64,000 nucleotides of DNA. Origin: a virus. Lineage: Duplodnaviria > Caudoviricetes. How positions within the stretch are numbered: position 1 is the stretch's first letter; every line of letters begins with the position of its first letter. The translations under genes and the position numbers were made by a program. Location: positions 144,086 through 208,085 of IMG/VR virus record IMGVR_UViG_3300032123_000052; one strand, given 5' to 3'. The notes beneath the pieces are model-generated. The model did no database searches, had not been told where the DNA came from, and was given only the letters and a program-made list of their open reading frames with translations. Shown here piece by piece: positions 19,615 through 20,314 of the stretch.

Positions 19615-20314
19615 AATAAGCCTTTTGCGTGCGCGGAAGAAACAATCGTTCTAAAATAATAAACGGATTATACCACCCATTTCCCTCGCGTGCGCGAAAG
19701 AAACGAGATAAAAAACAGCCTGGTGATGTTTGCCTCCCCATTTCCCTCGCGCGCGAGAAAGAAACTGATACCGTAGTGCTATAAGGCATAACGCCTCCCC
19801 ATTTCCCTCGCGCGCGCGGAAGAAACCCATGGCCAGTGAGAGTTTGACATTTTTCCTTCCCATTTCCCTCGCGCGCGCGGAAGAAACTAGAGAGAGAATT
19901 GTTAGATAACTGATAAGAACCCATTTCCCTCGCGCGCGCGGAAGAAACAGATCGTCAATGGCAATAGGGTTACCTTCACCCCCATTTCCCTCGCGCGCGC
20001 GGAAGAAACCGTCACCAAATATTTTGCATAGTCTTTCGAAACCCATTTCCCTCGCGCGCGCGGAAGAAACGCCAGCAGGTGCCCACGACCTTGGATCCCC
20101 AGCCCATTTCCCTCGCGCGCGCGGAAGAAACTTTTCAATTTTCTCCTTATTCATTGTCAACCCCCCATTTCCCTCGCGCGCGCGGAAGAAACCGAAAAAA
20201 TTAGGAGCCTCGCTGACCTCCTCACCCATTTCCCTCGCGCGCGCGGAAGAAACAGTGGAAGCGAATTTGCGGGCAATTGGTGCTGCCCATTTCCCTCGCG
20301 CGTGCGGAAGAAAC
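19615..20314 (-). CRISPR. CRISPR array: 11 full 29-nt repeats plus 1 degenerate terminal repeat, 11 spacers all 32 nt
   Basis: Repeat (minus) GTTTCTTCCGCGCGCGCGAGGGAAATGGG; + strand starts 19676, 19737, 19798, 19859, 19920, 19981, 20042, 20103, 20164, 20225, 20286; exact 61-nt period; degeneration at the left end implies minus-strand transcription. Confidence 0.98.

Follow-up and report, generated by a model that had tools for sequence, protein, structure and literature searches.

A complete phage genome carries, beside a predicted nuclease-dead relative of Cas12f, a CRISPR array whose repeats resemble those of type I-E systems and whose geometry is exactly theirs, and the same design recurs with distantly related effectors. 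The best reading of these data, to which we give a little better than an even chance, is that the array descends from an array of the I-E type and depends on an I-E-type integrase supplied in trans. Compared with a first-pass annotation of the same DNA, the main addition is that the I-E-like array appears to be clade-wide and ancestral. The window, by which we mean the whole stretch of 64,000 nucleotides analyzed, is the final 64 kb of a 208,085-bp IMG/VR virus record, whose genome is 100% complete according to CheckV. The source is a marine-sediment metagenome, and a search of sequencing runs found the locus in the source sample only. The elements of the locus, in window coordinates, are the following:

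20512..21840, minus strand: dCas12f-like effector of 442 aa (PADLOC, profile, AlphaFold/Foldseek)
20419..20495, minus strand: tracrRNA-like gene, effector-side copy (direct repeat D2; cofold with the repeat)
20315..20418, minus strand: AT-rich leader of about 104 nt, between the effector-side tracr-like gene and the first repeat
20286-20314, minus strand: leader-proximal repeat, with one change from the reference copy
19615..20314, minus strand: CRISPR array of 12 repeats of 29 nt and 11 spacers of 32 nt, with a 61-nt period
19615-19643, minus strand: decayed terminal repeat, its 3′ half gone
19499..19575, minus strand: the other tracrRNA-like copy, past the array's old end, 83% identical to the effector-side copy

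The repeats start at positions 19615+61k (k = 0 to 11) and the last one ends at 20314. All 11 spacers are different and each is exactly 32 nt long, so that the invariant 61-nt period and the 29+32 geometry reported in the first-pass annotation hold without exception. Eight of the 12 repeats share one sequence (reference copy, window:20225-20253:-), while the two copies that precede the far end, at 19737 and 19676, have two changes each. Equal repeats, unique spacers of constant length and decay at one end are the general marks of a CRISPR array. Since the decay marks the old end at 19615, the leader is placed at 20315-20418 and the array is read from the minus strand, codirectionally with the effector gene that lies upstream and heading away from it. 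The first part of the leader, after the T-run, is conserved in the two closest relatives of the locus (L001 and L003). The phage genome has this one array only, and none of its spacers matched the phage's own genome.

Several smaller observations concern the array. A 9-nt stretch, GGCAATTGG, which contains the palindrome CAATTG, occurs both at the start of the leader (20315-20331) and at the near end of the newest spacer (20254-20270); the two copies sit symmetrically about the newest repeat, which may be due to chance. By eye, several minus-strand spacers (within 19644-20285) begin with or contain a Shine-Dalgarno-like GAGG or AAGGA with an ATG after it, among them those at 19827-19858 and 19766-19797, and the spacer at 20132-20163 has a TTGACA box and then AAGGAG. 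Such motifs suggest guides that would be aimed at promoters or translation starts, in the sense orientation. In Logan unitigs of the source sample the array is broken up, with a depth of 44-51 for the spacer units versus 61-64 for the flanks, and the bin that holds the second spacer from the leader (window 20193-20239) has a depth of 19. This dip may reflect heterogeneity of the array in the population, the contig depths being not reliable enough to decide.

The effector had no match in Pfam, weak PADLOC matches to Cas12u3/Cas12f, and no match to GenBank phages by tblastn. A profile made from the effector and its relatives matched solved Cas12f chains. Furthermore, an AlphaFold model built on 56 relatives (pLDDT 88.7) gave AsCas12f as best Foldseek match (E 3e-13), followed by OsCas12f, SpCas12f1 and natural dCas12f; at the sequence level the similarity to the natural dCas12f structure 9n9c was weak (E 0.002). 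The model thus bears out the type V-like effector noticed earlier and points to a miniature protein with a Cas12f fold. In alignments, the RuvC-I aspartate is changed to glutamate within a VEF motif, the RuvC-II glutamate is replaced, with a residue at that position that varies across the family, and the C-terminus stops before the zinc ribbon and RuvC-III. The hallmarks of type V-F, an intact RuvC D-E-D site and a C-terminal zinc ribbon, are both absent, and a crude motif scan found a RuvC-III-like motif in 0 of 158 stored family proteins. Judged by its alignments, the effector is expected to be nuclease-dead.

The tracr-like element is 77 nt long (minus strand) and is composed of a CCAUUU segment at the 5′ side, two hairpins, an 11-nt anti-repeat at the 3′ side and a T-run. 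The differences between its two copies are compensatory, pairing being kept in both hairpin stems. In cofold calculations the tracr-like RNA paired only with nucleotides 12-28 of the repeat (11 + 6 bp, 17 bp in all) and left nucleotides 1-11 unpaired. The gain in free energy (ddG) was −17.1 kcal/mol with the phage repeat, as compared to −9.0 ± 3.3 with shuffled repeats and −9.6 with the I-E consensus repeat. This in silico result is in line with the tracr pairing that had been proposed for the repeat, and the element would be a tracrRNA with an anti-repeat, as in type V-F.

The likeness to type I-E was evaluated against authentic arrays. We searched 301 genomes in the class of the centre genome G001 (Halioglobus MAG) with TIGR03638 (I-E Cas1), which gave 18 matches above the cut-off, and arrays were present at 12 of these loci (gammaproteobacterial, L034-L050). 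A period of 61 nt was found in 12/12 of them, with repeats of 28-29 nt; a control array beside a non-I-E, I-F-like Cas1 had a 28-nt repeat and a 60-nt period. The phage repeat agreed in register with the consensus of the 12 gammaproteobacterial repeats at 17 of 29 positions, a value that falls outside the range of genuine I-E repeats compared among themselves, while its relatives reach 18-20/29. The average for 20,000 shuffles was 8.4 (p ~0.0007), and the reverse complement of the repeat agreed at 6/29. For six repeats of the dCas12f family the agreement in register was 14-20/29 (shuffles ~8.4; p from <5e-5 to 0.02) and their reverse complements gave 4-8; the repeat of L029 reached 21/29 with one I-E array. 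Within nucleotides 1-11, 7/11 positions agreed with the I-E consensus in the phage and 9/11 in L003. These values uphold the earlier description of the repeat as I-E-like. The phage array has in common with canonical I-E arrays the 61-nt period, the repeat length, the orientation relative to transcription, the 5′ part, the GC-rich core and the G at position 29, which in L032 is present in 6 of 10 units and variable otherwise, as it is in authentic I-E arrays. It differs from them by the lack of I-E cas genes, a weaker and interrupted hairpin, another 3′ handle and a leader devoid of an IHF-like site.

The hairpin of the phage repeat sits at the same position as in I-E repeats. Its minimum-energy fold (−8.9 kcal/mol) has one C-A mismatch, two to three G-U pairs and a 4-nt loop, whereas the stems of I-E repeats are perfect over 6-7 bp and close 4-nt loops (−12.2 to −14.5 kcal/mol); the weakening described in the first-pass annotation was therefore real. 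That annotation had also raised the alternative that the crRNAs load host Cascade. They would then be cut by host Cas6e as well, and the phage array would reprogramme host I-E interference. The overall likeness of the repeat, the identical geometry and the part of the hairpin that remains are compatible with such loading, which nevertheless appears very improbable: the hairpin is interrupted and less stable, and the last 7-8 nt of the repeat, which form the Cascade 5′ handle in I-E, match the conserved I-E ending at only a minority of positions, so that the repeat offers neither the stable substrate hairpin of Cas6e nor the conserved 3′ handle. Moreover, in L031 and L013 the I-E-type hairpin is shifted or lost, and the tracr-pairing part is retained.

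Leaders were compared in the same way. The collected I-E leaders have an IHF-like site about 20 nt upstream of the array and junctions that end in AAGT, TGGT or AAGA. This site and these junction motifs are absent from the leaders of the window, L001 and L003; I-E-like junctions were seen in L029, L013, L032 and L012. Among the I-E leaders of L034-L050, two shared boxes were apparent: one, GGTAGAATTTT-like, precedes the first repeat by about 45-55 nt, and the other, the IHF-like site ATCAAnnnnTTA, by about 20 nt. Both could serve as probes for I-E-type leaders elsewhere.

The leader of the window clade, being unlike I-E leaders, could speak for an integrase of another kind, such as a Cas1-Cas2 (of type V-F, for instance) from the host or a co-infecting element, or an enzyme not yet recognised in the phage, much of whose coding capacity is without annotation. 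In that event the repeat would resemble I-E repeats by having converged on a GC-rich palindrome. We consider this improbable, although less so than loading of host Cascade, because the strict 29+32 (61-nt) format was found in all 12 I-E arrays and not in the I-F-like (60) or Clostridial (66) arrays examined, and because the I-E likeness lies in register, in one orientation only, and recurs in six lineages. The Clostridial arrays come from a search for an analogous case in the class of the centre genome G003 (Oscillospiraceae MAG), in which 399 of 401 sampled genomes were scored. One genome, G430 (L088/L118), encodes a bona fide Cas12f (E 1e-120) with an adjacent array of 30-nt repeats and a 66-nt period. 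Its only Cas1 lies 1.6 Mb from the Cas12f gene, next to an array of the same geometry, and the two repeats are alike at 17/30 positions in register. By analogy, this single case suggests that miniature Cas12f loci may tend to adopt the array format of whichever adaptation-proficient system is resident.

An exhaustive profile search yielded 246 representative relatives of the effector, mostly of 360-440 aa, and a word-indexed protein search added one (P0153); a narrow alignment search of IMG/VR found no related loci. The flanking DNA was read for ten relatives. Most contexts are phage-like, with a Mu-type portal, a phage integrase and many small ORFs; L031/L032 lie in a stretch that resembles a defence island. 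In L001 (effector 79% identical) and L003 (67%) the effector is followed in turn by the tracr-like gene, the leader and the array, with repeats near-identical to those of the window and spacers of 32 nt. In L001 one repeat is short by 2 nt and the next spacer is still 32 nt long. Arrays with a 61-nt period are also present in L013 (effector 36% identical), L029 (31%) and L031/L032 (36%), and L012 (40%) has a 29-nt I-E-like repeat; the repeats of these four lineages differ from that of the window. I-E-like 61-nt arrays thus accompany effectors of 31-79% identity in five lineages besides the window (L001, L003, L013, L029 and L031/L032), and on comparative grounds the I-E-like array looks like a trait of the whole nuclease-dead Cas12f clade.

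These comparisons also bear on the origin of the array, which the first-pass annotation had traced to a host I-E array. Because the same I-E-like design occurs with effectors only 31-40% identical (L013, L012, L029, L031/L032), the capture would be old and ancestral to the clade. An old descent from an I-E-type array is thus plausible, and the part of the proposal that did not stand is an origin from the present host. Recent capture of the array from a current host was rejected on the same ground, the design being common to these distant lineages.

The turnover of arrays within the family is visible in two comparisons. L001 and L003 share no spacer with the window among the one or two leader-proximal spacers that are readable on their short contigs. 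L031 and L032, from two samples, have identical effectors and identical flanks, and L032 corresponds to L031 plus exactly one 61-nt repeat-spacer unit at the leader-array junction. This difference resembles polarised acquisition; it could instead be the loss of the first unit by recombination.

Other members of the family depart from the regular format. In L086 and L002 the arrays are irregular, and only a 10-13-nt motif that matches the 3′ end of the family repeat is kept, recurring every 23-70 nt; between two blocks of units lies a structured, terminator-ended tracr-like RNA gene of about 120 nt (L002:2950-3700, L086:2640-3260). A sigma-70-family ORF was noticed about 4 kb from the L002 locus. 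L083-85 have no array. They carry two tandem scaffold copies of about 70 nt (L083:7650-7990), each followed by short GGTGATG-type motifs, which look like fixed single-guide genes, and the L083-type effector (414 aa) retains a CxxC...CxxC ribbon. Since the decayed arrays retain only the 3′ motif of the repeat, the effector probably needs only this part. The I-E-like 5′ part accompanies the strict 61-nt ruler, which fits a 5′ half that would be maintained for an integrase.

Six-frame HMM searches of the complete 208-kb phage genome, in which the positive controls gave matches, detected neither Cas1 (PF01867) nor Cas2 (PF09707, PF09827) nor Cas6e (PF08798). Searched with these four families, the phage locus does not display the linked genes by which a type I-E system is recognised (cas1, cas2, cas6e, the rest of Cascade and cas3). 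Neither Cas1 nor Cas2 nor Cas6e was found in the flanks of the relatives, over up to 10 kb. The absence of adaptation genes, implied by the first-pass annotation, holds for the whole genome. In a phage without adaptation genes, the spacers were most likely inserted by an integrase supplied in trans.

A scan for the 3′ 20-mer of the repeat in 185,579 species genomes and in JGI metagenome contigs gave single chance matches and no array, and a 22-mer of the repeat gave only chance matches and no array in viral contigs. As no array with this 20-mer was found, nothing in these scans points to an extant host array as the source of a copy. Protospacers were also searched. Blast comparisons of the window array with GenBank phages and plasmids, and of the L032 and L029 arrays with phages, returned chance-level matches only, as did exact scans of IMG/VR with the two leader-end spacers.

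The lack of adaptation genes in the phage, the lack of I-E-type leader motifs in the window clade, the decayed arrays or fixed scaffold-guide genes of other family members, and the failure to find a partner array in the genome and metagenome scans would all be expected of a fossil, in which the 29+32 geometry was inherited from an ancient I-E-derived array that gains no more spacers, and the 11 spacers act as fixed guides for regulation or interference. This explanation is unlikely, though it deserves more weight than either a foreign type of integrase or Cascade loading. Against it, the repeats of the window show the pattern of a growing array, with eight identical copies out of 12 and decay limited to the three oldest plus one change in the newest; the closest relatives, as far as their spacers can be read, have none in common with the window; no spacer targets the genome of the phage itself; and L031 and L032 differ by a single unit. 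We infer instead that a host I-E integrase is the inserter and that the array of the phage is still growing.

In the mechanism that we favor, descent from an I-E-type array with insertion in trans, the array would be the working part of a phage-borne system built on a nuclease-dead, tracrRNA-using Cas12f. The effector would make use of the 3′ 17 nt of the repeat (nucleotides 12-28), which would pair with the tracrRNA. The first 11 nt, at the 5′ side and outside the tracr pairing, would stay I-E-like, together with the lengths of the 29-nt repeat and the 32-nt spacer. An I-E-type Cas1-Cas2 integrase of the infected cell would insert new spacers in trans at the effector/tracr-gene end, each event adding 61 nt. 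This design would be ancestral to a dCas12f clade carried mostly by phages and other mobile elements, and wherever an array has decayed or given way to fixed guide RNAs, all that would remain of the repeat is its 3′ tracr-pairing part.

A broader proposal, to which we give somewhat less than an even chance, is that the dCas12f clade routinely exploits host I-E Cas1-Cas2 through a chimeric repeat, with a 5′ part for the foreign integrase and a 3′ part for the tracrRNA and the effector. Phages would gain programmable silencing guides against competitors or host genes, and loss of the link to the integrase would lead to fixed single-guide genes. If this were true, CRISPR arrays would have had a natural path toward the free-standing guide RNAs of dCas12f that were reported in 2026.

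Three known systems are close to this locus. The Cas12r system of Thermus 'Lalka' phages lacks adaptation genes, recognises an ARG PAM and has an array of 29-bp repeats with 32-33-bp spacers; its authors noted shared repeat elements and proposed that the host I-E adaptation module inserts the spacers (Trofimova et al., April 2026 preprint, bioRxiv 10.64898/2026.04.20.719267). As here, a miniature type V effector borne by a phage lies by a short array without adaptation genes, spacers differ in related phages, and new spacers are proximal to the effector gene. Cas12r, however, is an active nuclease of 564 aa from another TnpB branch and uses no tracrRNA, whereas the present protein is a nuclease-dead Cas12f relative, to judge from its sequence, of 442 aa with two tracr-like genes. 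In addition, the Thermus host is cultured, I-E occurs in about half of Thermus genomes and the PAM is known.

Type IV-A3 systems are reported to gain spacers in trans via host I-E Cas1-Cas2, as shown experimentally (Benz et al., bioRxiv 10.1101/2023.06.23.546257; Cell Host Microbe 2024). They too belong to mobile elements, are without an adaptation module, have arrays like the host I-E arrays and interfere without cutting DNA. They are unlike the phage locus in their class 1 multi-subunit effector, their own Cas6, the absence of a tracrRNA and their location on conjugative plasmids of Enterobacteria. Trans-acquisition is demonstrated there, whereas for the dCas12f phage array it is deduced. 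The dCas12f phage family nevertheless has two features of such adaptation-less mobile-element arrays, the absence of adaptation genes and the turnover of spacers among relatives.

The third system is the natural dCas12f of Bacteroidota, which carries RuvC mutations and a C-terminal truncation (Nature 2026, PMC13472631; PDB 9n9c, 9n9m). That article mentions a separate dCas12f cluster located beside CRISPR arrays, with putative guide scaffolds upstream, and proposes an origin of single guides from repeat-spacer units (PMC13472631). The Cas12f fold, the RuvC mutations and the truncated C-terminus are common to the effector described here. The characterised dCas12f proteins, by contrast, pair with sigma-E and use single guides of 14-16 nt, and no tracrRNA was found (PMC13472631); the sections of the article that we consulted contain nothing on I-E-like repeats, a 61-nt geometry, carriage by phages or the source of spacers (PMC13472631).

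The idea of borrowing is thus already known from type IV-A3 and Cas12r. What would be new is its association with an apparently nuclease-dead, tracr-dependent Cas12f-like effector, as an ancestral trait of a whole clade. The source of spacers in systems devoid of Cas1-Cas2 is experimentally settled for few cases, such as type IV-A3, and for type V systems of phages it is so far a proposal (Cas12r). The locus provides a clear, testable case, for the stretch that would serve tracrRNA and effector (3′ 17 nt) lies apart from the part that resembles an I-E integrase substrate (5′ 11 nt and the 29/32 ruler). With its regular arrays, decayed arrays and fixed guide genes, the family could show how dCas12f regulators lose their link to adaptive immunity. 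On the practical side, it may offer compact, tracr-dependent, non-cutting effectors with arrays that an E. coli-type integrase could perhaps load.

Three further features of the window lie outside the locus. A full-length copy of HEARO, the RNA that guides IscB-type IS200/IS605 elements, is present at 36469-36673 on the minus strand (Rfam, 113.7 bits), so that the phage carries a second, unrelated RNA-guided element. Rfam also identified a complete tmRNA at 43258-43656 on the minus strand (118.7 bits), where ARAGORN found no tRNA or tmRNA; used as a clue to the host, it gave two short, weak matches among 251 genomes of the phylum of G001. Finally, long tandem repeats occupy 39222-39541, 60774-61584 and 62951-63996, with periods of 15 nt (21 copies), 120/240 nt and 393 nt, respectively, and probably correspond to repetitive genes of structural proteins.
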